Virus record (IMG/VR): IMGVR_UViG_3300046787_000675
Location: 1 to 64,000 of that record
From: a virus
Reading direction: 5' to 3' (one strand)
Length of the DNA stretch: 64,000 nucleotides
Below, piece after piece: positions 1,000 to 46,493 of this stretch. The number at the start of each line of letters is the position of its first letter. Position 1 is the first letter of the stretch. The translations under genes were made by a program, and so were the position numbers. A model generated the notes under the pieces. That model saw nothing but the letters and a program-made list of their open reading frames with translations, had not been told where the DNA came from and ran no database searches.

Positions 1000-3900
1000 G
1001 TCCCCGTCAAAGTCAGCCCCTAAAGGCTTAACAAGTGCCGGAGGAATCTGTAGAGAATGACCTTTTGTAATAACTGGCCACATTGCAATCATACTGTATT
1101 TATGCAGGGTAGGTGCGCGATTAACAATAACAGGTCTTGTTTTTATAACATCTCTTAACCCGCTCTGGGCAGCTTCTGTTTTATTAGCGACTGCTTTGGC
1201 TGCTTCTGTAGCAGGCATTCCAGCCTGGACTAAGCTTCTAACTATAAACGGCTCATACAGATCCCATGCTTTCTCCTCCGGTATTCCTACCTGATTAAGT
1301 TTAAGCGACGGGTTAAGAGATATAACAGCAAGACCGGAAGCATCGATATTAGTACCTATTACGCGTTTTTGGACAAAGCCTAATTTAGGAGATCCTTTAC
1401 CGAGAATATTGGTAAGTATACCTCCCACCTGTTTAGTCTGAAGTTCTGCCTGTACGGGGTCAGTTAATCCTACCAGAGCTCTATAATTCTTCTGTATATT
1501 TTCGCGAGCTTCATTCTTTACATCGTCCGGGAGATTAGCTGCGTCCTTATAATCCTCAATAGCCTCCATGGTAGCTTTATACATGTAGTTAGCATCATTT
1601 ACCATATTCATCCCGTTACTTTGTGTAATCGGTCTGTATTTAGGAGGTAATACAGGTATTCTGTCCATAAGGTAATCGCGAGGTGCTACACCTTGATCCT
1701 GCATAGCTTTTAGATAGCGGAACTTTTTAATAGCCAAAGGACGCGATGTTTTATTACCGTTCTTAATTAGTTCGATAGATTTAGTTATTTCATGTTCAAC
1801 ATCGATTTTATTTATCTTATCGTTAATAGCCCCATTACGAACTTCTTCATCAAATTGTTTTCTAGTCATCCCCAGTATATTTCTAATAGGATCTTCCATT
1901 ACAGGATTTACCATTGGCTCTGGCAAAGCAATATATCCCCAGCGTTTACCGTTGCCGAGAGAATCTGTAGCTACGGGGTCGAATAATCCGCCTTCTATAG
2001 GTTTAAAGTTACTCTGTGCAAATGTCGCGTTTTTAACTATCTGTCTATCGCCGGTTAGCTCCTGCGCACCTTTATTAGTTAAAGCTTGAATATTGTCGTT
2101 GTCCTTACCTTCATGAAAGTTTACTCCGGCAGCAGTAAGCATTGCCTTAAACTTATTATACACTTCAGGTGTATCCGGGACTTTAGGGGAATAGCCTAAT
2201 TTTAATTGCTTCCAGAACTCGTCGTTGCGTTGTCCTTTTATCAATTTCATATCTCTTAATACTTTTGTAGCATTGTGACCTAAGAGACCCTGCTCCTCCA
2301 TTACTCCTAAGTGCTTACTATTTGATACTAAGACGTTACCAGCAGTGTACTTATGTGTGTGATCTACAGTGAAGTCATAAACATTAATATATTCTACATC
2401 AGTTCTATGTTTATATTGTTTAATACTCCTAATAGTAGCTGGGACTTTACCAATCCTGCATATGTTATCTACCGGAACAGGTTTAATAGTTTTCTGTATT
2501 TCTTTTATAGTTTTGCGTAACCATATCTTACTACGAGGAACAGCTGTATAAGGGATATATTGTGCTATAAGCTCTACTAATTTAGAACACAGTTTAGCAG
2601 ATATATATAAAGAGTATTGTTCTGGGCGTTTATATATCTTACTTACGCACTTATCTCCGAATCTTCTTTCAAAGAACGCGATTATAAGATCTAATTCAGT
2701 CTCAGAGAACCCATGTGTAGATAATTCTCCTTGCAAGGCTATCTTTCCTTTCTTCTTAGCATGGTTTCCTATATACCCATCATCTAAAATCCAAGCACAT
2801 AGTCCTATATCGCCTATATAGTTAAGCCATTCTTCTGTAACCGTCTTCTTATCCTCTTTATAACACAGCTGTTTAAGTTCTTTTATAACCGCTTTATCGC
2901 ACATAGTCATTAGAGTACGTTTGTGTGATTTACCTTGAGGGTCTATTCCTTCGGATTTTATTTGAGACCATGTTCCATATAACCCCGCTACTACTTTTTG
3001 TTTAAAACTTATATACTCAGATTGCTTTATAGAATGCATTACCTGATATTGCTGCGATGTAAGATATGCGTCTCCAAGTAAAGACCCAGCTAAAAACTTT
3101 TTCTGATAATCTGTGGCAATTGGACCCCAACTGATAAGTTCGTCCCCCACCTTAAGCTCTCCAGCTGTTACTTTTTTACCGTTGTATAGATATACTTCAT
3201 GGTTGATTGTAGGAGTAAGAACAGATGTATGTTTAAATCTTTTACCCCCACACACTGATGCTGTTCCTTCTACTTCTATGTTAAGAATATCTGACACGCG
3301 TGCTCGATAAGTAAACCAATCCGTTATCGGTCTATAACACCAAGACTCAGTTTCCCCATCATATGTCCATACGTGTTCTGACTGCTGTTTCTCGACTATT
3401 CTACCTATCTCCCTCTCTCCATGAAGGGTTAATATTTTCTGTGTTGATGGGAAACATCCGGTCTTCCCTCCTTTCGCCGGTAAACCTTCTTCTGTGTATT
3501 TACCGGTCGAGCGCGCTTTTCCTTTGCCCTCTGCGGTATGTTGTAGTTTATAGAAGAAGCTTTTGCCTGTAAAAATTCCTGGTATTGTTTTACCTGTCCG
3601 CGGATCATATATATCTTCAACATCCTTTAAACCGTTTTTAGTTAATTCTTTCTCGGCAAACTCTACCATATCCTCGTCCAGAAATCCGGGGAGTGTGTAC
3701 GGTTTACCTGTTTTCTCTGCAATTTTTCCTAACTGCGCTTCTACTAATTGCGAGCTGTTTGTACGGGAGATAACTCCGAGAGGAGAAATTATAACGTCAA
3801 TAGGTCTTCCAGAAGAATCCCGCGGCATTTTATCGTCAGGAATAATATCGGAAATAACACCTTTACCTCCGAATCTATTAGACAGTTTATCGGCAATCAT

Positions 3901-6303
3901 CATAGGTACATTTGCCCGCGCTGCTACAGCAAAACCATTTTTAGTTTCAGTTGCATCGGTAACAACACCGGGAAACTTATGTGTCCATGTCTGGGTTATA
4001 TCAGTGCGCAGTCTTCTACCCAGGGTATTGCTTCCCTGTGTTTCATTAAAGGCGACTACCATAGGATCGCCGTAATTAAGTATACTGCCAGGCTTTACTA
4101 CGCCGTTCTCGTCGAGTTTATTTAATTGATCTTTGTTAAATTTAGATGGGAATACAGCCAGGAACTTTTTAAGTCCAGTCTGTGTATCTTCATTCTTCTC
4201 AAACTCCTCGTTATACATATGCTCTGAGGTTAATTTACTTCTAGCTGCGCTCTCCGAAATAAGTATAGAGTCTTCAAATACTTTTCCGTCGTAATTCATA
4301 TAGGCAACACGTAAATTTGTACCGAGAGCAGTTACACCTTTATCGTCTGTATAATTACTGCTTGCAAGTAGCTGTTGTTTACCTACCTTATCTCCTACTT
4401 TTACTGCAGGAATATTACGTATATAAGTCTTACGGGAAAAAGGAAATTTATTGTAGAGTTCGTGTGTTACGGATTTACCGTCGGCATATTTAACTGTTAC
4501 ACTATCGTCATCTAAAGCTGTAACAACGCCGTCGTTATCTGCTCTAAGAGCGCCCATATGTGTCCCTAGTTCCTCTTCCACGGACGACTCTCCGGATACC
4601 GTCCTTACAAGAGGAGCTTCCCGGGAAACTAGAGGGAGAGCCTGCACGGCAAATTTTGAACCCATTAAAAGGCGCATACCTTTAACTCCGCTTTTTAAAG
4701 GTACTGTATTGGCTCCATTAGAAAAGATATCGTCTCCTGTAGGAACTACAAAATCAAGATCTTTACGCGGTATAAGTTGTACGCCTTTCTCGGTTACAGC
4801 AGGGACGAATTCGTTTTTATCGTTAAGGTATTCTGATGTCGCGACGTTTTTATAGGCTGCTGTTTTGGAATCTACCCATTCTCTTTCCCCCGTACGGGCA
4901 TTAATAAATTGCGTATATAACTTATTATCTTTTCCTTTCCGTACATTCCGGGCAAGGCGCATATCGACACCTATTTTTAAGGATTCCGGACTGCGAATAA
5001 CATCAACAAAGTTCAAGTAAGAAGGCTGTACATCCCGCGCAGAAGAAGGTACACTATCGATATCTTCTAAGGCACCTTCGCCGAGACGCGTAATACGTTG
5101 GTTCTGATCGTAGTAATCTAACGGATTTATCTCTTCAATACCTTGGCTAACTCCCGAATTATTAAATAGATATGTGACATGGTCGTCTAAATGTGCCGGG
5201 GGAATAACTTCTGCGTTAGGTCCTTTGGAGCTAAGTCTCCAAAGTAATTTTTTAGAGACATTATGTTGGTCGCGACGAATTTTCTCTGTTAGGAAATCGG
5301 AGAAATCAAATACGCGTTGAAACGCCAGGGAATCCCTATTGTCATTACCTTCCTGTCCGCGAGATATACGTAACAATTTAGATGTTGCATCTGCCAACAA
5401 TTGGGGTTGGACTCTCTCGTAAGGTTTACCTAAAGTGCTTGTTGTTCCCTCTACATCCAAGTCCCCTTTAGAAAACGTGTCAATAAGATTTTGCCTTATG
5501 CGTTCTGTGTCATCTGCAGCTTCTTTATCCAGGGTAGGATCTTCCTGCTCTTTTATAAATTCTTCTTTAGGAGCTCTTCCTCCGGGATGTACAAAAGATT
5601 TAATAAAGCGGGTAGCATGCGATGTATTGCGCATTGTTTCGTTTACAGTATATATTTCTTTACCCCATCTACTCTTTAAATCCTGTGTATCATAGCCCAT
5701 TGCCTCCATAACAGGGAGAAGAGGTACTTTCTTATTAGCATATTTTAAATAAAATACCGCTGTAGATGGATCCATAAAAATACGGAAATTAGATCCTGTA
5801 CCCGGTTTAACATTTATTTGTGCCTCTACTTGCTGGTCATCTGTACGTTGGCTATAAACGCCGGGATTCAAACGGAATTGTTTATTTACAGTATATTCTG
5901 TGCCGTTTCGAATAAATGTACCTCTATCCGTCAGGAAAGGTACGTTCATAACAGTACGGGGGTTAGACTTAGACAAGATATTACCTTGTAGATCGTGTAC
6001 TTCCCATGAACCTTTAAGTTTTCTAACAAGGGATTTTCCTTTAAGAATAGCTTCTCGCTGTTCGCGAAGGTTATACCGTTCTTTAGGTTCATATTGTACG
6101 TCGGACAGTACAAGTTTATATTTATCGTTCGCAATAGGATAGGCATTAGATACAGCATCTTTAATGTTATTGTAGATAACTCCACGGAAGGAATTATAAT
6201 CGCTGTAGTCTATTAATTCATCGGGATTTACTTTTGGTAGTTCAAACAGACTATCTGCACTACCTGTAGCAGTACCTGTAGGTGCCGGGAGTATATTTGA
6301 CAT
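1..6303 (-). CDS. rpoBC: Fused beta-beta' multisubunit-type DNA-directed RNA polymerase (partial, >=2101 aa, 3' end beyond window), containing two inteins
   Basis: Hand translation from ATG at 6303; frame checked at 5160, 3456, 2340 and 1020. Beta motifs: VPFLTDRGTFIRNGTEY, SQGIEEINPL..RITRLGEG, RSPESLKIG, RLLMGSKFAVQALPL, ALGTNLRVAYMNYDGKVFEDSILISE, DKLSNRFGGKGVIS, KLQHTAEGK, KHLGVMEE. Beta' motifs: KPIEGGLFDP, IPVLPPKYRP, NRAPTLHK, GADFDGD (1020-1000). Confidence 0.95.
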   Translation of the reverse strand, partial: MSNILPAPTGTATGSADSLFELPKVNPDELIDYSDYNSFRGVIYNNIKDAVSNAYPIANDKYKLVLSDVQYEPKERYNLREQREAILKGKSLVRKLKGSWEVHDLQGNILSKSNPRTVMNVPFLTDRGTFIRNGTEYTVNKQFRLNPGVYSQRTDDQQVEAQINVKPGTGSNFRIFMDPSTAVFYLKYANKKVPLLPVMEAMGYDTQDLKSRWGKEIYTVNETMRNTSHATRFIKSFVHPGGRAPKEEFIKEQEDPTLDKEAADDTERIRQNLIDTFSKGDLDVEGTTSTLGKPYERVQPQLLADATSKLLRISRGQEGNDNRDSLAFQRVFDFSDFLTEKIRRDQHNVSKKLLWRLSSKGPNAEVIPPAHLDDHVTYLFNNSGVSQGIEEINPLDYYDQNQRITRLGEGALEDIDSVPSSARDVQPSYLNFVDVIRSPESLKIGVDMRLARNVRKGKDNKLYTQFINARTGEREWVDSKTAAYKNVATSEYLNDKNEFVPAVTEKGVQLIPRKDLDFVVPTGDDIFSNGANTVPLKSGVKGMRLLMGSKFAVQALPLVSREAPLVRTVSGESSVEEELGTHMGALRADNDGVVTALDDDSVTVKYADGKSVTHELYNKFPFSRKTYIRNIPAVKVGDKVGKQQLLASSNYTDDKGVTALGTNLRVAYMNYDGKVFEDSILISESAARSKLTSEHMYNEEFEKNEDTQTGLKKFLAVFPSKFNKDQLNKLDENGVVKPGSILNYGDPMVVAFNETQGSNTLGRRLRTDITQTWTHKFPGVVTDATETKNGFAVAARANVPMMIADKLSNRFGGKGVISDIIPDDKMPRDSSGRPIDVIISPLGVISRTNSSQLVEAQLGKIAEKTGKPYTLPGFLDEDMVEFAEKELTKNGLKDVEDIYDPRTGKTIPGIFTGKSFFYKLQHTAEGKGKARSTGKYTEEGLPAKGGKTGCFPSTQKILTLHGEREIGRIVEKQQSEHVWTYDGETESWCYRPITDWFTYRARVSDILNIEVEGTASVCGGKRFKHTSVLTPTINHEVYLYNGKKVTAGELKVGDELISWGPIATDYQKKFLAGSLLGDAYLTSQQYQVMHSIKQSEYISFKQKVVAGLYGTWSQIKSEGIDPQGKSHKRTLMTMCDKAVIKELKQLCYKEDKKTVTEEWLNYIGDIGLCAWILDDGYIGNHAKKKGKIALQGELSTHGFSETELDLIIAFFERRFGDKCVSKIYKRPEQYSLYISAKLCSKLVELIAQYIPYTAVPRSKIWLRKTIKEIQKTIKPVPVDNICRIGKVPATIRSIKQYKHRTDVEYINVYDFTVDHTHKYTAGNVLVSNSKHLGVMEEQGLLGHNATKVLRDMKLIKGQRNDEFWKQLKLGYSPKVPDTPEVYNKFKAMLTAAGVNFHEGKDNDNIQALTNKGAQELTGDRQIVKNATFAQSNFKPIEGGLFDPVATDSLGNGKRWGYIALPEPMVNPVMEDPIRNILGMTRKQFDEEVRNGAINDKINKIDVEHEITKSIELIKNGNKTSRPLAIKKFRYLKAMQDQGVAPRDYLMDRIPVLPPKYRPITQSNGMNMVNDANYMYKATMEAIEDYKDAANLPDDVKNEARENIQKNYRALVGLTDPVQAELQTKQVGGILTNILGKGSPKLGFVQKRVIGTNIDASGLAVISLNPSLKLNQVGIPEEKAWDLYEPFIVRSLVQAGMPATEAAKAVANKTEAAQSGLRDVIKTRPVIVNRAPTLHKYSMIAMWPVITKGHSLQIPPALVKPLGADFDGDKQIGNVIVNLPCKYLEEYYSVSDIYNKEYWRTRLMAARFTTHLPYVKGSNYYCINLEDFPYRKDRLLGSKDGVDFYEAEKFLKVPAYCEKTKKIVLADVHGWSIHRDKEIWLVNLHNRNQIITDDDERAVYGCLPGTLELVRRTPKDSVGMLVPSGRHLENIALDYEASITTIPGEGSSLLDQIPLNKSFGHLIGFLIGDGWVSFCNGKVKGQLCFSTSYGNVEQSIQEDLNKIRKDGKAAHLHRKKTADSYGDSYTYVYSNTDTSRLLFKLMGKGADKKHLPSFWLCSPREFKIGLLSGLFDSDGSISISNGKSKPQLMASFSSISLRLVQE
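2320..3456 (-). mobile_element. Intein 1 (379 aa, LAGLIDADG homing endonuclease) in the beta C-terminal region
   Basis: Starts CFPSTQKILT after ..KGGKTG. Block B TPTINHEV; LAGLIDADG motifs LAGSLLGDAY and AWILDDGY; ends VYDFTVDHTHKYTAGNVLVSN followed by +1 Ser. Removal restores GGKTG-SKHLGVME (cf. GGQRFGEME). Confidence 0.92.
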
Positions 6304-6306
6304 ATT

Positions 6307-7287
6307 CTACCCTTGTGCAAGTAATTTAGCGTAAGGATCTGTATCGTCGACAAGCGGCGCAGGAATCTTTTTTGCTTCTTCTCTTCTACCTAAAGGTACT
6401 ACAGATTGTTTTTTCTTTTTATCTTTTTCCAGTTCTTCGTCTATGTAACTCAGATCTGTAAATTTAGGTACGCCTTTTACCCGGGTAATATCCTGCATAA
6501 TAGTATTAAGTTCTTTAAGTCTTTGTCTATTCGGGTCTTTATTATCCATATACCCTTTAGCCGATTTATAGCTAAGTCCAGCAATACCTAATGCAGCAAG
6601 AATGTATAAAGATAAGGAGGCACGACCTATGTTAGAAGGATTAATGTAATCACCTAAACTATTCATTTCTGTTCTAGGAACATTTCCCGGTAAATAGCCG
6701 GAAATACTGTGTATAGCTTCTGCCGCTGTTTTATTGAGGCCACGTGTTCGTTTATACTCTTCATATAAAAGTTTATCGATTGTATTTTCTGTATCGGAAA
6801 TGCTATTGTTAAGCTCGTCTTTCTTATTATCATTGATAATACTGTCTGTAAGTTTCCATCCCCCGTATGTACCCGCCAGTAAAGCTGCAAGAGCTACTGC
6901 CGGATGGAAACGACTTGTTGTTTTGTCCGATAAAGTATCCCAGGCTTCTGTTGCCTGTTTCATTATAAGATCGGATGTTTCCTCTGCCCCTAATTCTTTA
7001 AGTTTTTCTTCCTTCTTAACGTCTCGTGTAGAGGCATCTAAACTAAGAATAGGGTTACGGGCATTTATATAGTTCTTCATTTCTTCTGTAGTTTTCGCTT
7101 CTACAGCCTGCTGACGAAGATGCGAAATATATTTTGCAAGAGCACCTAGGGTACCATAGCCAATAGCTAATCCTGCGCCGTGTTTTAATGCTTTAGATGT
7201 AGTTGTATCTCCAGACGATAAAGGAATATTTCCTGCAGCGAAAGGGTTGAAGAATAAATTAAAGTATTTTTGTGTGTTACTTGACAT
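6307..7287 (-). CDS. Putative virion (head-internal/ejection) protein with Gly/Ala-rich hydrophobic helices and internal KQA/KTA motifs
   Basis: 326 aa; GAGLAIGYGTLGALA, AVALAALLAGTYGGW; MKQAT, NKTAA; structural gene context. Confidence 0.55.
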   Translation of the reverse strand: MSSNTQKYFNLFFNPFAAGNIPLSSGDTTTSKALKHGAGLAIGYGTLGALAKYISHLRQQAVEAKTTEEMKNYINARNPILSLDASTRDVKKEEKLKELGAEETSDLIMKQATEAWDTLSDKTTSRFHPAVALAALLAGTYGGWKLTDSIINDNKKDELNNSISDTENTIDKLLYEEYKRTRGLNKTAAEAIHSISGYLPGNVPRTEMNSLGDYINPSNIGRASLSLYILAALGIAGLSYKSAKGYMDNKDPNRQRLKELNTIMQDITRVKGVPKFTDLSYIDEELEKDKKKKQSVVPLGRREEAKKIPAPLVDDTDPYAKLLAQG

Positions 7288-7630
7288 TTTTAGCAGTCTC
7301 CGGATCAGTATAATAAGTTTCGTACCATTCTAAATAAATACTAAAAGGAACTCTGTTCGTAAACAGCTCTTTGATTGAGACATTAATTTGTTTATGTATG
7401 GCTTTAGACATTAGCTCTTCATACTCTTTAGTGTCTTTCTCGTCTTCCATGTTAAATACTTTAGCCCGGGGAGAAGTCAAAACAAGTTTAGGTTGTTTGG
7501 ATTTTGGGTCTGATTTTTTAATGCTCATGTGACTACCTTTATATGGTCGTCCATTCCATTGTCCTTGAACAACGTCTGCAGAGTTAATAGAAAAAGGTTT
7601 ACCGTTCATAGGTATTTCGTAAGTAATCAT
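7277..7630 (-). CDS. Hypothetical protein
   Basis: 117 aa; overlaps neighbouring start/stop codons. Confidence 0.7.
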   Translation of the reverse strand: MITYEIPMNGKPFSINSADVVQGQWNGRPYKGSHMSIKKSDPKSKQPKLVLTSPRAKVFNMEDEKDTKEYEELMSKAIHKQINVSIKELFTNRVPFSIYLEWYETYYTDPETAKNVK

Positions 7631-7908
7631 AATCTTATCTCCCGCTCTTGTTTTACGGGTGCTTTAGTCTGTATTTCGGCTACTTTCTTTCTTCTCTCTA
7701 ATTCTGATTTAAATTCGGATAATTCCAAGTTATACAATTTGTCCTGTATAATTTTTTTATCTGCGACAGATGGGCTGGTTATTTTTGAGGCTACTACCCC
7801 AGCACCAATACCCAGTGTAGCCGGTGCCAGTATAGATAAAGCTAATAATGTATTAGAATCCAGGGCTGCTTCTTTCTGTAAGAATTGTTTAATTGCTTCT
7901 TTATCCAT
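7627..7908 (-). CDS. Small putative virion membrane-helix protein (KEA motif)
   Basis: QFLQKEAAL then hydrophobic LLALSILAPATLGIGAGVVA. Confidence 0.6.
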   Translation of the reverse strand: MDKEAIKQFLQKEAALDSNTLLALSILAPATLGIGAGVVASKITSPSVADKKIIQDKLYNLELSEFKSELERRKKVAEIQTKAPVKQEREIRL

Positions 7909-7910
7909 TT

Positions 7911-8888
7911 TTAAAATCCTTTACTCAAAATTCCAGTATTATATAATGCACCTGCTACAGCACCGATATCGCTTAAGCGCTCTGTCTGTGCTTTAGGTAA
8001 TGAGAATAATTTACCCATAGTAGAGCCAAATGCAATTCCCGCCCCCATACCAATACCTGCTTTTATCGCGGTTCCTGCTAAATCCATTCCACTAACGTGT
8101 CCGGAAGAGCCTTCGCTAGTTGACCCGAGAAGAGACTTTACCCGGGATTTATCCCCTAAAGTTAGAAATTCGTCGCGATCTATTAAATTACTGCTCTGGT
8201 GTACAGGAATAACTGGATGTGTGAAAGAGGATACTGTATTGCTAATTTCGTTGTTACCAAGGAACGCTTCTTTATTATGTCCATGGATATTTAATAGTAA
8301 ACAAAGCTCATTCCGTAGTTTGTCGCTGGGTACTTTATTTTCTGTTGCTTCTTTTTCCATTTCTATAAGTAATTTATTAAGTCCGCTCTTATCGTTAAGT
8401 CTATTGAAAATAACACTCCAGGCTTTCACTGCACCTTCTTTGTTTAATCTACCGGAATCGAACGGATTACCTGTAACATACTGAACTGCTCTAGGAGGAT
8501 TATGTAGTGCATCCATAATTTCCTGGTGCTGTACTTCGGGGTTATTCTTATAGAACTCTTGTTTATTGATAAATTTAGAGAGGTTATCTCCTGTAGATAT
8601 TTTTGAATTATAATTCTTTAATGCAGGATATGCAGCACCTACGCTGGCACCTGCCAGTGTCATTAGATTCTGTAAAGATTTAAAAGAGTCTCCTCTTTTC
8701 ATCTCTTCATACGCGAGTTCTTTTTCTTCACTGGATTTACCTATAAGAGATAATCCCAGTGCAAGGCGAGCAGCGGCCTTGGTACCGTATCTACCTATCA
8801 AGGCACCTGCGGTACCTAAGACAGCAGATTCAAGAACCGGTCTATTTTCTAATTTACCGTATGCTTTAGTTATTCCCGTAAAGCTCAT
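7911..8888 (-). CDS. Putative virion protein with glycine-zipper-like helices
   Basis: 325 aa; GIGMGAGIAFG, GAVAGAL; KEA motifs. Confidence 0.55.
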   Translation of the reverse strand: MSFTGITKAYGKLENRPVLESAVLGTAGALIGRYGTKAAARLALGLSLIGKSSEEKELAYEEMKRGDSFKSLQNLMTLAGASVGAAYPALKNYNSKISTGDNLSKFINKQEFYKNNPEVQHQEIMDALHNPPRAVQYVTGNPFDSGRLNKEGAVKAWSVIFNRLNDKSGLNKLLIEMEKEATENKVPSDKLRNELCLLLNIHGHNKEAFLGNNEISNTVSSFTHPVIPVHQSSNLIDRDEFLTLGDKSRVKSLLGSTSEGSSGHVSGMDLAGTAIKAGIGMGAGIAFGSTMGKLFSLPKAQTERLSDIGAVAGALYNTGILSKGF

Positions 8889-12101: not shown

Positions 12102-12860
12102 CTATGCATATGCTTTAGGCATAGAAACGTTATAAGGGTTCGTTGGCTGTTTGATTAATGGAGGGGTGGTATTTACAGCCGGAATTATTGCAGATGTATT
12201 ACTGACTGCAGGAGTTTGACCTTGTGTTTGACCTTGTGTTTGACCTTGTGTTTGACCTTGTGTTTGACCTTGTGTTTGACCTTGTGTTTGACCTTGAGGC
12301 TGGTTGGTAATTACTTTATCAGATTCATGTTTTACCTCTTGCTCATTAACTTTTGCTTTAGCTGCTGCTATTTTTGCTGCCTCTGCTTGTTGTTGTGCCT
12401 CCAGTGTAGCTCTACCTCTATCCTCTTGTATTTTTTGGATAGCTTTAGTTGTGTCTCCGCCGAAGTAATTAGTGGCAAGCCATCCTACTAAGGCACCGAA
12501 ACCACTACCTAATAGCGCGCTTGTAGCATTTCCGCCCATCATATACCCTAAACCTGCGCCGGCAGTAGCGCCTAATCCGGCACCGGCTATTTGTTGGTTT
12601 CTAGCTGCGTTGGGTCCTTGTGTGAAATTGTTGGCAAAGGAATAAGCTTTATCTCCTGCCAGGATTTTCTCTGCAGCGCCCGACCCATTAGCTTTATTAT
12701 ATGCTGCAATCATTTCCTGTAAAGGAACAGCTTCGTTTGCCTGCTTATGCATATATCCTTTTAGGAAAGCGTCTCTGTTAATAGATTTTTTATCCGTTTC
12801 GGATTTGTTTGATTTAAGCATGTAACCTTGCATGAAGGCTTCTTTAATGACAGTGTTCAT
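12102..12860 (-). CDS. Putative virion glycine-zipper protein with two copies of the N-terminal signal and a QGQT repeat
   Basis: AFMQGYMLK and AFLKGYMHKQA; GAGLGATAGAGLGYMMGG; LLGSGFGALVGWLATNYFGG. Confidence 0.65.
   Translation of the reverse strand: MNTVIKEAFMQGYMLKSNKSETDKKSINRDAFLKGYMHKQANEAVPLQEMIAAYNKANGSGAAEKILAGDKAYSFANNFTQGPNAARNQQIAGAGLGATAGAGLGYMMGGNATSALLGSGFGALVGWLATNYFGGDTTKAIQKIQEDRGRATLEAQQQAEAAKIAAAKAKVNEQEVKHESDKVITNQPQGQTQGQTQGQTQGQTQGQTQGQTQGQTPAVSNTSAIIPAVNTTPPLIKQPTNPYNVSMPKAYA
12213..12297 (-). repeat. 12-bp tandem repeat x7 encoding (QGQT)7
   Basis: GTTTGACCTTGT unit read directly. Confidence 0.95.
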
Positions 12861-31326: not shown

Positions 31327-31371
31327 TTTCTACTCTACTTCATCGATAGCTAAAAAAAAGAGCGGAAGACT

Positions 31372-31405
31372 TTCTCCGGTACACTTTTTAGGGTGTACCG
31401 GAGAA
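31372..31405. terminator. Perfect 13-bp hairpin ending the ribozyme-containing cassette (probable terminator)
   Basis: TTCTCCGGTACAC / GTGTACCGGAGAA; U-run about 12 nt further downstream on minus strand. Confidence 0.55.
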
Positions 31406-31414
31406 CAATATATC

Positions 31415-31642
31415 TTAAAGAGCTTGCGGTTTTAACGCCTCAATCACAAGGTTATTAAGATATATCGGGGGGACGGTTAGCGATATTAACCCATTGAGCT
31501 CGGGGGCAATCAATCCTTTATCGTCTATCCTATAAAGTATATTTCCTGTTTTCAGGAAATCACTTTTTATAAATATTTTACCGTCTTTTCTGTGCAATGA
31601 AAAGGGTTCAGTACCCTTTTTTGTTTCTAGTAAGATAAGCAT
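31415..31642 (-). CDS. Hypothetical protein
   Basis: 75 aa with repeated leader and AAGGAG RBS. Confidence 0.65.
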   Translation of the reverse strand: MLILLETKKGTEPFSLHRKDGKIFIKSDFLKTGNILYRIDDKGLIAPELNGLISLTVPPIYLNNLVIEALKPQAL

Positions 31643-31683
31643 AATTTGTTCTCCTTTTAAAAGACGGGCTTATGTCTGCCCTT

Positions 31684-31760
31684 ACTGAATTAAAACTTCT
31701 ATTTAACAACTGCATTAAATAGAAGGGGCTGTTGGTTCAGTGTCTACCAACAGCCCTATT
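31684..31760 (-). ncRNA. Structured RNA motif C, copy 1 (two hairpins + pseudoknot), unassigned
   Basis: GGGCUGUUGG/CCAACAGCCC and CUUCUAUUUAA/UUAAAUAGAAG stems; loop ACUGAA complementary to downstream UUCAGU; covaries with 35398-35476. Confidence 0.75.
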
Positions 31761-31900
31761 TAGTAGCTTTTTTAACATAGGGAGCTACACTAACCCTATC
31801 CCGTATAAAGTAGTCTATGTAACGCCAAGACTCCTGCGCCTGACTTTATAAAGGTCAGGTACTTGCTGTAGCCTTTTAGTGTCTTGCTTAGGACAAGTTT

Positions 31901-32719
31901 TTAGTTAGAGGCGAGCCATTCTTTTATGGCTTTCGAAAGCTCTTCAGGACTGGGTATTGCACCCGTCGGGGCGAACGGGCTTCCACCTATGGTATCGGCG
32001 CCTCCCCAATTTCCTATTTGAAACTGCTCACTCAAGAACGGCCAAAGGGATTTAAGAGAAGGGACTTTACTAAAGGGCAACTTACCTATGGTGATCTTAT
32101 CACCTAACAAAAAGCCGAACCCAGCAGACTTGTAAATGTCTGCGAAATTGTTCTCCCCATCACGAGAGAATACAATTTCTCCTTTCGGGGAGAGGCCAAT
32201 TGCTGTTCCTTTGAACTTGTGGAGTTTGTCTCTCCGATAGAGAGTACCCTCGGTATATTCCTTACCGACTCTCTCCACTAGGGAGAGTAAAATCTCGGTC
32301 GATGGAACGACCCCGCGTTCGGGGCGAGCCCATCCAAAGATGGAAAGACCCTCTACGTTATCGGCTGCTGACGCGCCGTTCGCGTCTATCTGACTAACTT
32401 CGCGAACGAAGTTAGCAAATTGCGGGTCGTCCGCCGCAGCGGGGTTTAAAACCAGCCACGTACTCAATATAGAGTCCGCATCGATCGAGCTAACCCGCAT
32501 TTCCTCAATGTCCGGGAGGAATTGTCTCAGCCCAAGCCTCAGGGCATTCAACACCTGCAAGCAGGTTGCCGACAGAGGGAATCGTTCCCCTTCGCCATGA
32601 TGGTCGAAGGAGAAACTATTTGTCTCTGGTTTCGCGGCATAGCCTCGGTAGGCACCATCAATGTATATGGTGTTGTTTTCCATTTCATTTACGGGATCAG
32701 TTAGTAGTTGGATATTCAT
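31901..32719 (-). CDS. DHH-phosphoesterase-fold-like protein
   Basis: IYIDG, SFDHH, IDADSILS, WGGADTIGGSP. Confidence 0.55.
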   Translation of the reverse strand: MNIQLLTDPVNEMENNTIYIDGAYRGYAAKPETNSFSFDHHGEGERFPLSATCLQVLNALRLGLRQFLPDIEEMRVSSIDADSILSTWLVLNPAAADDPQFANFVREVSQIDANGASAADNVEGLSIFGWARPERGVVPSTEILLSLVERVGKEYTEGTLYRRDKLHKFKGTAIGLSPKGEIVFSRDGENNFADIYKSAGFGFLLGDKITIGKLPFSKVPSLKSLWPFLSEQFQIGNWGGADTIGGSPFAPTGAIPSPEELSKAIKEWLASN

Positions 32720-32798
32720 AATTTTCTCCTTATAAGACGGGCTATGACTGCCCTTATTTTTTCAAAACAACCCGCCTTGCATACACAAGCCAGAGTTT

Positions 32799-32861
32799 AT
32801 TACCCCCTGTAGTACAGGGACGCACTAAGCTTAAAATCTATTTATAGTCGCTTAGTCGACT
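32799..32861 (-). ncRNA. Pistol ribozyme, copy 1 (predicted cut between 32803/32802)
   Basis: AGUCG-ACUAAG-CGACU-AUAAAUAG-AUU-UUAAG-CUUAGU-GCG-UCCCUGU-ACU-ACAGGGG-G^U-AAU: P1, pseudoknot, P2, P3 and conserved AAAUAG/UAAG/GCG/GU of pistol. Confidence 0.9.
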
Positions 32862-33307
32862 TCCTCCTCATCCTCATCCAGAGCAGGGGCATTCTCCCAC
32901 CACTCGTAGATCAACGATCTTAAATCCGACAGTCTGTCGGACTGTTCTCGTTGGAGATGAAGACGAGGATCTTCCTCGTCTAGGATCGGGAGACCTACAC
33001 GACTTTTTAAATCGTCAGGTAATTCTTCAAATCCTAGGTAGTTGCAATAGCTTACAGTCAGGACATCCTTTACATCCTGCTCTGTTACTTCCCCAACTAC
33101 GGGGAAGGTTTTAAATATATCTTTCGGGATGTCGAGGAATACCCCCGAAAGAGTTAAGTTGTTACTTACAGCCACTTCTTGGGAGGAACATGGCGGTCTT
33201 GTAGTTATTACAGGAGCGACGAGATAGGTCTCGTCGTTATCCCGTACAGCGCAAAGGAGGGCTTCGCGCCATTTAACTACCTTCAATCGAGGAGTTCCCA
33301 TAACCAT
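32852..33307 (-). CDS. Hypothetical protein; stop codon lies inside pistol copy 1
   Basis: 151 aa; ends GUC GAC UAA within P1/loop. Confidence 0.7.
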   Translation of the reverse strand: MVMGTPRLKVVKWREALLCAVRDNDETYLVAPVITTRPPCSSQEVAVSNNLTLSGVFLDIPKDIFKTFPVVGEVTEQDVKDVLTVSYCNYLGFEELPDDLKSRVGLPILDEEDPRLHLQREQSDRLSDLRSLIYEWWENAPALDEDEEEVD

Positions 33308-33696
33308 TCCTCGTTGAATTCCTCAAAATCCTCTCTGAAGAATCTATTCGGAGTGGGCCCACCCCCTATGATTAGCCCTGAGGCGAGCATAAATATGCTA
33401 CCAAGTCCTTTCCCTAGAGAGCGGGAGGAGCCTCCCTCCTTCCAGAATTTCTCTGGAATATAGAGGGCTTCTTCATCGCCCTCTATATTCTCTCCTGGTA
33501 GACATGTGTAATGCTCCAGCTCATTTTGAGCATCCTCCTCTTCCCCTACGGCAGTAGGGTCATAGGTATACCCCTTTTTACGGGGTGTTTTCAATTTTAA
33601 CCCCGCAGGGGTTATAATTATAGATCCACCCTCTGGGGTGGGCAGTACGGAACCGCCCGCGGCGTAAAACTTATAATTTAGGTTTCTTTTATTCAT
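33283..33696 (-). CDS. Hypothetical protein
   Basis: 137 aa, repeated leader and AAGGAG RBS. Confidence 0.65.
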   Translation of the reverse strand: MNKRNLNYKFYAAGGSVLPTPEGGSIIITPAGLKLKTPRKKGYTYDPTAVGEEEDAQNELEHYTCLPGENIEGDEEALYIPEKFWKEGGSSRSLGKGLGSIFMLASGLIIGGGPTPNRFFREDFEEFNEEWLWELLD

Positions 33697-33773
33697 AATT
33701 TTTCTCCTTATAAGACGGGCTTATGAAACCCTTATTTTAAAACAACTCGCCTTACCTACGTAAGCCCAAGTTT

Positions 33774-33836
33774 ATTACCCCCTACAGCGTAGGGACGCAC
33801 TAGGCTTAAAATCTCTTTATAGTCGCCTAGTCGACT
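33774..33836 (-). ncRNA. Pistol ribozyme, copy 2 (predicted cut between 33778/33777)
   Basis: AGUCG-ACUAGG-CGACU-AUAAAGAG-AUU-UUAAG-CCUAGU-GCG-UCCCUAC-GCU-GUAGGGG-G^U-AAU; compensatory changes versus copy 1 in pseudoknot and P3. Confidence 0.9.
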
Positions 33837-33871
33837 GCTACGTTTTACGCCCAGCTCGGCGCGGACGGTTT

Positions 33872-34150
33872 TTACATCAAGTCTTCCTTAGATGCGATTC
33901 CGTCTGCTATTTTAATAGCAGTGTGTCGGAACCATCCGAGAAGACTGTCCACGTCTTGGCTATTTTGCCAGTGGTATTCCTGGCAGGTTAGCCCTCTGGC
34001 GGGACAGCCCTTAATGTAGAACCTATACCCTTTGTACAGGATATAGATTCCATCCGCCTCTACTCTAAGATCGTAGTCCTTTTCAGGTAATACATTAGAG
34101 TAGAAGGCGATTTCTTGGATTAGATCCAAGGTATCTTTGTTATTTAACAT
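33872..34150 (-). CDS. Hypothetical protein
   Basis: 92 aa, AAGGAG RBS. Confidence 0.65.
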   Translation of the reverse strand: MLNNKDTLDLIQEIAFYSNVLPEKDYDLRVEADGIYILYKGYRFYIKGCPARGLTCQEYHWQNSQDVDSLLGWFRHTAIKIADGIASKEDLM

Positions 34151-34184
34151 GGATACTCCTTGTAGGCTGGTCAGGCCTGTTAAA

Positions 34185-34649
34185 TTATTTTTTTAAGAGC
34201 ATAACGCGACCTACGTTAAACACTTTGACATGGTAATTTAGAGCCCTCGTTTCAGCCTCATCGGCTTCTGCTAAGTACTCCGGTGTGACCCATACTCCTT
34301 TGTTCAAAACCCTTTCAAGTTTTTGCACATAAGGTGCGGAGTCATGTCCATGTCCACCGAAAAATATTACAGCCTCGGTGTGGCTGTTGGCTTGTTGCCA
34401 TGCCGCACATCCGCTGTGGCTACGCCGTTTAACTTGAACCGGGTAAACGATACCGGTGCTCTTGTTTGCAAGAGCTACGTCCACTCCCTGATGATCCAGG
34501 TCATGAGTGATGAACGCCTCCCAGCCTCTAATCTGGTCGATTACCCTTACGAGGATTTCCTCGTTTAGATAACCAACCTCTTGAGCACGGCTGGCGTTCA
34601 CTGGGATACGTGCTTTTTTATCCCAATCATACGACTTAAAAACTTTCAT
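34185..34649 (-). CDS. Putative PD-(D/E)XK nuclease-fold protein
   Basis: LDHQGVDVAL...YPVQVKRR. Confidence 0.6.
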   Translation of the reverse strand: MKVFKSYDWDKKARIPVNASRAQEVGYLNEEILVRVIDQIRGWEAFITHDLDHQGVDVALANKSTGIVYPVQVKRRSHSGCAAWQQANSHTEAVIFFGGHGHDSAPYVQKLERVLNKGVWVTPEYLAEADEAETRALNYHVKVFNVGRVMLLKK

Positions 34650-34666
34650 AAAAAAATCCTTATAAT

Positions 34667-34729
34667 ATTACCCCCTACAGCGTAGGGACGCACTAAGCTT
34701 AAAATCTATTTATAGTCGCCTAGTCGACT
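34667..34729 (-). ncRNA. Pistol ribozyme, copy 3 (predicted cut between 34671/34670)
   Basis: Same layout; ACUAGG/CUUAGU pseudoknot has a G-U pair that works only on the minus strand. Confidence 0.9.
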
Positions 34730-34737
34730 GTTAAGAA

Positions 34738-35070
34738 CTACCAGGGGTAGCGGTAGTTCTTTGTTCCGGACCATTTAAACCTAGGGTTCCTAGGCACCCC
34801 CCGTAGGTCCATATACGGGAGGTGAAAAGATATTTGATGCCCTTTCCAACATACGTATAGTATGTCAGAAAAGGCATCTCCACCAATTACTACCTTAGGT
34901 AGATCGGGGAGATTTTTATCTCTTTTTATTTTCCATTCTTTTATGAACAGATCAAGGTATTTCTCCTTGTGTTCATAAAAGAATGTAGAGTCTTCCTTGG
35001 CTCGTATATTGGCCAAGAAAGCTCTTTTTAGTAAATAATTCAGGAATTTATCCATCCATAGATACTCCAT
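34738..35070 (-). CDS. Hypothetical protein
   Basis: 110 aa; QISFHLP...KWSG motif. Confidence 0.65.
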   Translation of the reverse strand: MEYLWMDKFLNYLLKRAFLANIRAKEDSTFFYEHKEKYLDLFIKEWKIKRDKNLPDLPKVVIGGDAFSDILYVCWKGHQISFHLPYMDLRGVPRNPRFKWSGTKNYRYPW

Positions 35071-35397
35071 TAAGGTTGTTACATAGTAGAGATAGCATCC
35101 GCGCTATTTCTACCGACATGTACTCACCTTGTTAAGTACACAGCTAAGGTTTTTTATGGGTCATATAGAGGATACCTGTAAAACCCCTACTAGAAAGTCT
35201 TTCGCGCCTTCTTTCGCGCCCCCTTGGGGGAACTGTGGTACACATGAGCCTGTACCAAGCCCCGGGGAAACTAGTGATCCTTCACTAGAGACTGATGTCC
35301 CGGAATTTTTCATTTGTATCCCGCCCCGCTTTGCGGTCGGCGGATAATTACTGTTTCATAATTTCGCTCCTTATTAAAGACGGGCTTATGAAACCCT

Positions 35398-35476
35398 ACT
35401 GAATTTATATACTTCTACTCACCCACTGTAGTAAATAGAAGGGGCTACAAGTTCAGTTACTACTTGTAGCCCTATT
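35398..35476 (-). ncRNA. Structured RNA motif C, copy 2
   Basis: GGGCUACAAG/CUUGUAGCCC (compensated stem), CUUCUAUUUAC/GUGAGUAGAAG, loop ACUGAA + downstream UUCAGU. Confidence 0.75.
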
Positions 35477-35547
35477 CAAAGATAACTATGCGCTATCTCA
35501 TTATATTATGACCGTTTTTACCTAAAAATTAAGGCTATATAATCCTG

Positions 35548-35814: not shown

Positions 35815-36274
35815 CGTCTACCTCTACGGCATTATACAATAGAGAAACTGTATTTTCAAACGCTGTTCGAAGAAGCGTGTCGCTTATTACGAAAGGATAT
35901 ACCACTCCTGTACGTGCTTTGCCAGCCATAACACCGTCCACAATAAAATCCAGTATATCAATAAGATGTATATCTTCCGGTATACCATCCTCTGCTGTTA
36001 AATGGTGCCTGTTTACTTTCCTATGGTTATCCCACCAGGTAGTGTTCTTAAAGCCCCCGACGAAATCTCTATGGAAACCGTCGATGTCCGAGAACTTGTC
36101 ATGATCATGGTGTTTAACCTGTTCATCAATCAGCTCTTTAAAGAAGTCAAACCCTTTACGGATATCCCCTACATGCTGCTCAGAGCTTTTTAACAGTTGT
36201 TCTTTCGTTACCTTTGTGTAATCGCAGCTTCGTGTGTCAGCTGTCTCGCTTTTGCGAATTGTTATTTTTTTCAT
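35804..36274 (-). CDS. HD-like (DUF5662-like) protein
   Basis: HVG..HDHDKFS..HRKVNRHH..LIDILDFIVD. Confidence 0.6.
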   Translation of the reverse strand: MKKITIRKSETADTRSCDYTKVTKEQLLKSSEQHVGDIRKGFDFFKELIDEQVKHHDHDKFSDIDGFHRDFVGGFKNTTWWDNHRKVNRHHLTAEDGIPEDIHLIDILDFIVDGVMAGKARTGVVYPFVISDTLLRTAFENTVSLLYNAVEVDDEK

Positions 36275-44900: not shown

Positions 44901-46493
44901 TTAATTGTTATTAACAATGCATGCTCGCATTTCTGCGAACAAGGGCTGATCTGCCAACGCACGTAGGAAAATCCCACGCGCTCCATTTATATCTCGGCAC
45001 ATACTCTGTCCGAGACTCTTGATGGTCTTACGACCACCTAGATTTTGGATAACTTCTCCTGTCCAACTAGCGGTTTTACTTGTGTATGCTTCGCATTGTC
45101 TTATTATTATTTTTCCTGCCTCGTTAGCTTTACTTAAAAGCTTTTGAGAGAACTTGTAGTGGGATAAGGTAAGCATTTGACGTACTGACTTTTTGCGTAG
45201 CTTACGAGCAGCTTTACAAACCATATTACTTACTTCGAAAGGAGGTAGGATTATAACATCAAAGTTATTAACAAGCATAGCTACAGCTTTGTTGTGTAGT
45301 TCGGCTATTAAGTCTTTGATTTTCCAACGCATCCTATCTGCAGCTTTCTTAAGCCTATATCGTTGCTTAGCTGTACATTTAGTTTGTCGACTTATCAAGT
45401 CGTCTAAATAAATACACAATCTTGTTATTCTGCTCATAGCGCCTGAACCTATTTTAAAAACACCTGCAGGAGAGTAGCCTGTTAAGAATGTTCGTACACC
45501 TGGATCAAGAGCTACAATCCTACCTTGGTTTTCGGCAGGTACTGTAGTTACTTGTTCCGGTATACAGACAAACCATCTACCTTGTTGGTAAATAAGTCTG
45601 CTGTCCATAGGGGAATTTGGAATAGCTTCAGAATAGCGCAATACGCCTGACAATCTTTGATAAATACCTTTATCGCTTATCGCGCTCTTAGGGATGTAAC
45701 AAGAGTGTACAGGCTCTTTCTTACTTTTAAATTTAGGTACTTGGGGTACCCCTGTCTGCTTAGTAGTCATACGGCATTTAACAAGGCAAGAGTGCGCTTC
45801 TTTTACAGCTATAGACTTTATTTGATATGGTATTTCTTTCGACCATACAGGAGCGTCTTTGAAAAGAATATTTCTAAGATCCATCCAAGACACTCTTTCT
45901 GCAGGGTTTTTGTTTAACCAATCTAAAGCTAAGTTGTAGAAGAAACGGAAAGAACCTAGCCATTTCTTAAAGGCTATTTTCGTCTCTTTCAACGGATAGA
46001 TTCGTATCTTTCTCGATTTTGTTAGCGTACTTCCCAAATCGTGCGAAGCTGCTGGAGAAGTATTGTGATAATTCATTAACGTTTGTTGTGAGTTCTTCTT
46101 TGGAGCTAAAGCGGTGGTCATTGAGAACCACGATTTCTCCGCCGTTCTTCCTAACCATGGACTCAATGAGGTCAAATCCAAGTCTAACAAGTCGGTCTTT
46201 ACTGGTAACCACAAGCGTGAGCTTATCTCCCTGCATAAGTCGTTCCAGTAAGGCTTGAAGTCCTTTTCTTTTGAAGTTAAGAGCACTTCCGGTGTCTTCG
46301 ATGACTTCAGCGTTTGGGTACAGCTGTCTAAGTTGCGCGGTTTGTCGGACGAGGTCGTCCTTTTGTTCCGGCGAGTGGACTCTGCAGTAAAGGACGATAG
46401 AACTGTCTGCTTGTCCTCGAATGTACGATTTGACATCGTACAATCGCTGACCTGCTTCATTTTTGACTGTTCTAATCTTTCCTTCATCTGCAT
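44901..46493 (-). CDS. tnpB: TnpB, catalytically rearranged (Fanzor2-like/pro-Fanzor type); true start uncertain
   Basis: KIRIYP, ALDPGVRTF, VIILPPF (no canonical Glu), QCEAYTSKT, RDINGARGI. Confidence 0.88.
   Translation of the reverse strand: MQMKERLEQSKMKQVSDCTMSNRTFEDKQTVLSSFTAESTRRNKRTTSSDKPRNLDSCTQTLKSSKTPEVLLTSKEKDFKPYWNDLCREISSRLWLPVKTDLLDLDLTSLSPWLGRTAEKSWFSMTTALAPKKNSQQTLMNYHNTSPAASHDLGSTLTKSRKIRIYPLKETKIAFKKWLGSFRFFYNLALDWLNKNPAERVSWMDLRNILFKDAPVWSKEIPYQIKSIAVKEAHSCLVKCRMTTKQTGVPQVPKFKSKKEPVHSCYIPKSAISDKGIYQRLSGVLRYSEAIPNSPMDSRLIYQQGRWFVCIPEQVTTVPAENQGRIVALDPGVRTFLTGYSPAGVFKIGSGAMSRITRLCIYLDDLISRQTKCTAKQRYRLKKAADRMRWKIKDLIAELHNKAVAMLVNNFDVIILPPFEVSNMVCKAARKLRKKSVRQMLTLSHYKFSQKLLSKANEAGKIIIRQCEAYTSKTASWTGEVIQNLGGRKTIKSLGQSMCRDINGARGIFLRALADQPLFAEMRACIVNNN

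Follow-up and report, generated by a model that had tools for sequence, protein, structure and literature searches.

Three pistol ribozymes are predicted to punctuate a polycistronic transcript in a phage gene cassette

Results

Three pistol ribozymes lie between the genes of a phage cassette

The window analyzed here covers positions 1 to 64,000 of IMG/VR record IMGVR_UViG_3300046787_000675, a 160,705-bp contig of an uncultured phage. The contig is linear, has a GC content of 38.7% and was rated 84% complete by CheckV. Terminase-like PHROG matches elsewhere in the contig indicate a phage context. On the minus strand of the window lies a gene cassette in which three pistol self-cleaving ribozymes alternate with open reading frames (ORFs). 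In the direction of this strand the order is ORF110, pistol 1, ORF154, ORF92, pistol 2, ORF137, ORF151, pistol 3 and ORF272. The three co-oriented pistols are 893 and 975 nt apart, with ORFs of the same strand on either side, and divide the cassette into two units of two genes each, as the first-pass annotation of this DNA had proposed. Pistols 1 and 2 follow the upstream stop codons at a distance of 8 and 35 nt, respectively. In the case of pistol 3, the TAA stop codon of ORF151 (32854-32852) forms nucleotides 8-10 of the ribozyme and is located in the P1 loop.

The window was compared with Rfam 15 by cmscan. Three matches exceeded the gathering score, and all of them belong to the pistol class (RF02679, gathering score 34.5). 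Each match lies on the minus strand and covers the full length of the model (positions 1-68). The scores (64.5 to 69.3 bits) are nearly twice the gathering score, with E-values of 1e-9 to 1e-10. A permissive Rfam scan of the window revealed no further credible family, and within the 160,705-bp contig the Rfam Pistol model detected pistols only at these three sites. The first-pass annotation had read three pistols with all of their elements on the coding strand, and the Infernal search with the Rfam model bears this out. Each copy is 64 nt long, one nucleotide longer than had been stated.

Reading of the individual sequences revealed a P1 stem of 5 bp (AGUCG/CGACU) in all three copies. The 6-nt P1 loop, ACUARG, pairs with the P2-P3 junction, CYUAGU, to form the pseudoknot. 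UUAAG, GCG, a P3 of 7 bp and a short P2 are likewise present in every copy, with the first G of GCG at 34691, 33798 and 32823 in pistols 1, 2 and 3, respectively. In this class the 3' strands of P3 and P2 are separated by a junction of strictly 2 nt, usually G-U, at which cleavage takes place (PMC4604425), and a G-U was found there in all three copies (Table 1). The copies therefore share the complete architecture of the class, including the 6-bp pseudoknot and the UAAA.AG, UUA.G and GCGU blocks, as well as its setting among phage genes. A difference is the conserved leader of ~80 nt that is attached to two of the copies and is not part of the family. The first-pass annotation gave the core as AUAAAUAG throughout; this applies to pistols 1 and 3, but the middle copy reads AUAAAGAG.

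The three copies are 92-97% identical to each other, and an exact repeat of 36 nt is common to pistols 1 and 3. One pair of the pseudoknot takes a textbook compensatory path: copy 3 has A-U, copy 1 G.U and copy 2 G-C. Compensation in the pseudoknot had been noted before, and this pair indeed varies compatibly, but the description needs a correction for copy 1, which combines ACUAGG with CUUAGU and contains a G.U wobble. P3 also differs between copies by compensation (CCCUGU/ACAGGG versus CCCUAC/GUAGGG), exactly as described in the earlier reading. Among 88 other pistols, 22 columns are at least 90% conserved, and all three copies match them except for one variable position; this check is partly circular, because the pattern that seeded the comparison set fixes part of these columns. 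Judged by these features, the three elements are genuine pistol ribozymes, and they are very probably active as self-cleaving RNAs at this locus.

Table 1. Features of the cassette, grouped by type (window coordinates).
Feature	Coordinates	Strand	Remarks
Pistol 1	34666..34729	-	RF02679 67.5 bits; own model 71.4 bits; predicted cut G34671/U34670
Pistol 2	33773..33836	-	RF02679 64.5 bits; AUAAAGAG variant, pseudoknot fully Watson-Crick; predicted cut G33778/U33777
Pistol 3	32798..32861	-	RF02679 69.3 bits, E 1.5e-10; predicted cut G32803/U32802
Sigma-70-like promoter	35831..35859	-	TTGAAA-17 nt-TATAAT, 11/12; consensus match only; best in region; candidate transcript start
Intrinsic-terminator-like hairpin and T run	31353..31378	-	hairpin 31378-31363; candidate transcript end
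ORF110, ahead of pistol 1	34738..35070	-	likely true start ATG at 35055, GGAG upstream
ORF154, first gene of unit 1	34185..34649	-	21-nt leader after predicted cut
ORF92, second gene of unit 1	33872..34150	-	no family match
ORF137, first gene of unit 2	33283..33696	-	25-nt overlap with ORF151
ORF151, second gene of unit 2	32852..33307	-	end lies within pistol 3
ORF272, gene after pistol 3	31901..32719	-	
5'-proximal leader hairpin after pistol 2	33744..33772	-	predicted fold; covaries with pistol 3 counterpart
5'-proximal leader hairpin after pistol 3	32769..32797	-	predicted fold; covaries with pistol 2 counterpart
Shared leader module, copy after pistol 2	33697..33731	-	
Shared leader module, copy after pistol 3	32720..32753	-	
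Two-hairpin element D6a with leader module	35360..35480	-	upstream island edge
Two-hairpin element D6b with leader module	31643..31765	-	downstream island edge, ahead of ORF75 (31415-31642)

A candidate transcription unit spans all three ribozymes

A sigma-70-like promoter was located upstream of the cassette and an intrinsic-terminator-like hairpin downstream of it. A scan for sigma-70-like sites detected no promoter-like site on the minus strand between the two. Because of this arrangement, a single transcript carrying all three pistols is plausible. The G-U junctions predicted as cleavage sites would release internal fragments of exactly 893 and 975 nt, the sizes that had been given before. 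The cassette had also been termed a probable early one. Its sole basis is a single promoter-like site and the small genes without assigned function, and the designation was not retained.

Pistols are mostly intercistronic at other viral loci

IMG/VR was searched with a degenerate pattern of the pistol core, which yielded 77 loci. Rfam confirmed 27 pistols in 14 of these loci. With a covariance model built subsequently, 107 pistols were found across the window and 73 of the 77 loci. Across 91 distinct pistols, pairing amounts to 95.2% in the four helices (P1, pseudoknot, P2 and P3), and double changes occur at every one of the 20 pairs. Moving the partners by 1-3 columns as a control reduced pairing to 33-43%. 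P1 and the pseudoknot are 99.3% and 97.2% paired, respectively.

Several pistols can share a locus: 15 of the 73 other loci contain 2 to 8 of them, invariably on one strand. The ribozymes mostly follow the orientation of the genes, as 82 of 92 non-redundant pistols are found on the strand with the greater ORF coverage. For 76 of 93 pistols, a frame that is open for 40 codons or more ends between -30 and +25 nt relative to the ribozyme start. The frame ends peak directly before the ribozyme and at its internal stop triplets (positions 8, 18 and 22). The upstream frame stops at one of these internal positions in 25 of 93 other pistols and within the 3 nt before the ribozyme in 22 more. A stop in the P1 loop, as in pistol 3, was found in 9 of 93.

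The richest locus (L068, a 131-kb contig) carries eight pistols within 5.2 kb (3360-8574), followed by seven in L030 (1-4313) and three each in L060 and L021. L068 and L030 are related AT-rich contigs with homologous genes between the pistols, and they contain the densest single-class pistol arrays found in this analysis. In both, a pistol occupies nearly every intergenic gap in the orientation of the genes, ~30 nt before the next start and often overlapping the previous stop. The genes of the L068 array are mostly without assigned function. These four arrays resemble the cassette described here in that the ribozymes share one strand, are intergenic, precede the next start, often cover the upstream stop and lie between unassigned genes. 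They differ in being denser, with mostly one gene per unit and a uniform gap of ~30 nt to the start; they have no long shared leader, and their proteins are unrelated. Because of the strand, stop-codon and array statistics across these loci, we conclude that pistols typically lie between the cistrons of phage mRNAs, and that the present locus is an ordinary instance. In another IMG/VR phage contig, a pistol was observed ~300 nt from a GOLLD RNA (L052:1867-2616; 211.7 bits).

The ribozymes are followed by shared leaders and the cassette is bounded by repeats

Alignment of the three units showed that their similarity begins exactly at nucleotide 1 of the ribozyme. In units 2 and 3 it extends for ~80 nt through the leader up to the start codon. 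In both of these leaders a hairpin is predicted to begin 5 nt from the new 5' end, and the two hairpins differ by compensatory changes. Further downstream, the leaders share a module composed of a small GGG...CCC hairpin followed by GUCUU, the Shine-Dalgarno sequence AAGGAG and AUUAUG. Exactly four copies of this module occur in the genome, every one within the cassette. A search with the module pattern gave 40 matches, none of them in a hairpin context, and these were attributed to chance.

The two remaining module copies are each preceded by a two-hairpin element at the edges of the cassette. It occupies the slot that in the other units is filled by pistol and hairpin. The element contains a 66-nt repeat (35476-35411 and 31760-31695) that folds far more stably than shuffled sequences (z -4.6 and -4.8). 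The two-hairpin RNA (35480-35397 and 31765-31682, minus strand) is composed of two 11-bp stems, both with compensatory differences between the copies. The first loop contains a conserved ACUGA that could pair with an equally conserved UUCAGU downstream, as a possible loop-to-tail pseudoknot. Rfam offered no convincing match: an assignment to twister-P1 was considered and rejected, as one copy scored 18.7 bits against a gathering score of 67.2 and the other gave no match. No relatives were found in IMG/VR with the pattern of the element. The two-hairpin RNA might act as a terminator or as an RNase site, or it might be a processing RNA of a new kind.

Together with the leader module, the two-hairpin elements constitute direct repeats of ~120 nt that bound the cassette. 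The enclosed region (31.7-35.3 kb) has a GC content of 44-51% compared to 33-41% in the flanks, and it therefore looks like an acquired island. Behind the first leader module, a stretch of ~290 nt (35070-35360, minus strand) contains only a mini-ORF of 3 codons (35359-35348) and a low-complexity ORF of 50 amino acids. This hairpin-rich stretch may be a non-coding RNA.

The genes of the cassette have few relatives

Comparison of the cassette proteins with PHROGs, Pfam, NCBIfam and PADLOC gave no match. ORF154, ORF137 and ORF151 found only themselves among 5.8 billion proteins. For ORF154, a language model and structure comparison pointed weakly to a PD-(D/E)XK-like nuclease. ORF272 belongs to an uncharacterized family of 164 representatives comprising phage and bacterial proteins. 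D21, H40, H41, D80, D82, D112 and WGG are invariant in this family, and its motifs are FDHH, NDxDAD and WGGG. The AlphaFold model of ORF272 is confident (pLDDT 95.4). Its top structural neighbors are DHH/DHHA1 phosphoesterases, namely pAp phosphatase, RecJ, Cdc45 and PggH, although with modest Z-scores of 5.1-6.5, and DUF6687 compares to the model with a TM-score of 0.62. With moderate confidence, this points to a divergent DHH-like phosphoesterase, which may act as a nucleotide or oligonucleotide phosphodiesterase. The contig of the nearest relative of ORF272 (53% identity) contains no pistol.

The cassette had no blastn match among 50,697 phage records. A protein-based locus search with ORF154 retrieved nothing, and the same search with the downstream 268-aa gene gave one weak, unrelated match. 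An exact-pattern search for close relatives of the pistols was likewise negative. These searches thus yielded no related phage for a comparison of island gain or loss. As a marker for the host, the SNF2 helicase led to only two distant phage relatives, in Salmonella and Pseudanabaena phages. A 530-aa protein was discarded as a host marker because it is a mobile TnpB-like gene. At 44901-46493 (minus strand) the window encodes a TnpB/Cas12f-like protein with Cas12f1-like TNB and OrfB helix-turn-helix domains; the proteins closest to it come from Vibrio and Bacillus phages and carry transposase annotations. A further repeat, seven tandem copies of the 12-nt unit GTTTGACCTTGT, was noticed at 12202-12309.

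Discussion

Pistols are prevalent in Firmicutes and are often found near phage genes (Harris et al. 2015, PMC4604425). They cleave at the 2-nt junction between P3 and P2, leaving a 2',3'-cyclic phosphate and a 5'-OH, and the pistol of Lysinibacillus sphaericus does so at ~10 per min at physiological Mg2+ (PMC4604425). Bacteria and phages contain thousands of self-cleaving ribozymes, whose biological purpose a review describes as undefined, while noting the suggestion that they process polycistronic transcripts (Weinberg, Weinberg and Hammann 2019, PMC6765202). In prophages, multiple hammerheads flank single genes or short gene blocks, and long phage transcripts were proposed to be processed into gene-length mRNAs (Perreault et al. 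2011, PMC3088659). These clusters cut as expected in vitro, in native fragments of ~2 kb, and one arrangement also did so in vivo (PMC3088659). The present cassette resembles them in that several co-oriented ribozymes lie within a few kb among phage genes of mostly unassigned function. It differs in using the pistol class only and in its units of two genes, and cleavage is a prediction here. The ribozyme-punctuated phage operon has been known since 2011, and this locus is a further case. The core idea of the first-pass annotation is right, yet it is not new, because it has been published that clustered ribozymes may process polycistronic RNA of phages (PMC3088659, PMC6765202).

We consider it likely that the three pistols act as sense-strand self-cleaving elements which split a polycistronic phage mRNA into shorter messages. 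The mRNA would run on the minus strand from ~35.8 kb to ~31.35 kb, and each pistol would fold during transcription and cut at G^U. Four pieces would result: an upstream RNA ending in pistol 1, the 893-nt fragment with ORF154 and ORF92, the 975-nt fragment with ORF137 and ORF151, and a downstream RNA with ORF272. The RNA upstream of each cut would retain 59 nt of the 64-nt ribozyme, which would form a compact 3' end with a pseudoknot and a terminal 2',3'-cyclic phosphate. The RNA downstream of it would begin with 5'-OH-UAAUA, 21 to 83 nt before the start codon. In the leaders of units 2 and 3, the covarying hairpin may serve as a built-in 5' stabilizer, and the hairpin and Shine-Dalgarno module as the translation start. 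Such processing would require no host RNase, and its likely benefit is to uncouple stability and translation of adjacent gene units in a horizontally acquired island of accessory genes. We infer cleavage in vivo, transcription as a single unit and the stabilizing role of the flanking structures from the sequence.

A comparable arrangement is found in bacteriophage T7, where RNase III cuts intercistronic structures of the early mRNA and thereby generates stable shorter mRNAs with a structured 3' end. In both systems, structured elements between the genes divide a polycistronic phage transcript. The T7 sites are processed by a host enzyme that leaves a 5'-phosphate and a 3'-OH. In contrast, the pistols are predicted to cut themselves, with a 5'-OH and a 2',3'-cyclic phosphate as products.

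Several observations weigh against the proposed processing. P2 is weak, since it consists of three A-U pairs, the only Watson-Crick pairs in this stem, and one G.A. Copy 2 has a G at a linker position that is a U in 82 of 88 other pistols, although this column also varies (C, A, G) in other natural pistols. Promoter and terminator are consensus matches only, and the phage appears to encode an RNA polymerase of its own, the promoters of which fall outside the model used for the scan. The two-hairpin elements at the edges could themselves terminate or process RNA. A ribosome ending in the P1 loop could disturb folding of pistol 3. Finally, the fate of the 5'-OH ends would depend on the host.

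The last point bears on the earlier suggestion that 5'-OH ends would be spared from decay. Such shielding depends on the host and was not upheld: RNase J1 of Bacillus subtilis accepts the RNA with a 5'-OH that the glmS ribozyme releases, and this RNA is rapidly degraded, as stated in a passage of PMC3328962 that cites Collins 2007. In units 2 and 3 the new 5' end is closely followed by the leader hairpin, which agrees better with a need to protect this end than with an inherent protection by the 5'-OH. One may go further and regard the island as a 'cut-and-protect' system independent of host RNases, in which the pistol cuts, the hairpin shields the 5'-OH and the module starts translation, with the two-hairpin element as a second, undescribed RNA-processing element and possibly a new self-cleaving class. 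We regard this extended scheme as speculative and rather improbable.

The ribozyme-plus-leader modules could instead be mainly portable junctions of gene cassettes. Their near-identical copies would then serve as sites of homologous recombination that shuffle accessory genes, and cleavage would be secondary. This is possible, although clearly less likely than a primary role in RNA processing, with which it is compatible. The high identity of the copies fits such a role, as the genes between them are unrelated and without relatives. The start of homology exactly at ribozyme nucleotide 1, the elevated GC content of the island and the direct repeats at its borders are also in line with it. However, the searches revealed no related phage, either carrying or lacking the island, in which a recombination event could be demonstrated. 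Moreover, the kept catalytic core and the compensatory changes argue for selection on RNA function and not on sequence identity alone.

Cleavage might also be conditional and coupled to translation. A ribosome that reaches a stop codon in or before P1 would delay folding, and the cut would report on, or be timed by, translation of the upstream gene. The position of the ORF151 stop in the P1 loop of pistol 3 would suit this mechanism, as would the stops inside or just before the ribozyme in 25 and 22 of the 93 other pistols. Genome economy explains such tight packing equally well, though, and pistols 1 and 2 of the cassette lie beyond the upstream stops. We know of no ligand- or protein-dependent pistol. 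A regulated cut of this kind appears unlikely.

RtcB accepts RNA ends with a 5'-OH and a 2',3'-cyclic phosphate (Tanaka and Shuman 2011, as listed in PMC8782182), which are the ends expected for the 893- and 975-nt fragments. On this basis, the first-pass annotation had suggested that both are joined end to end into circular mRNAs. In the contig, which is 84% complete, no match to PF01139 (RtcB) and no Rnl1-type, Rnl2-type or PNK-type kinase domain was found, and the RtcB search detected the control genomes. Circular or spliced products were also considered for the hammerhead clusters and were not detected (PMC3088659). Circularization is very unlikely as an outcome at this locus. A 1,892-bp Logan contig that is identical to 34713-32822 and has the same pistol segment at both ends was set aside as evidence for circles or cleavage, since an assembly break (k=31) at the 36-nt repeat explains it fully. 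Identical DNA occurs in the samples SRR35439270 and JGI 3300049477. The weak P2 might be taken to mean that the three sequences are inactive relics or resemble pistols by chance. This can hardly be reconciled with their E-values, the intact invariant positions and the compensatory nature of the differences between them.

The cassette described here is a tidy example of a single-class ribozyme arrangement with an attached leader, and it suggests what may happen after the cut: the 5' end is protected and translation restarts. What it adds is the fused leader, which would allow the transcript to be cut, protected and translated, the structure of the island, and an unclassified two-hairpin RNA at both of its edges. 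Existing knowledge is not changed by this locus. Together with the denser arrays elsewhere, it supports the view that pistols serve as a general intercistronic punctuation in phage mRNAs.

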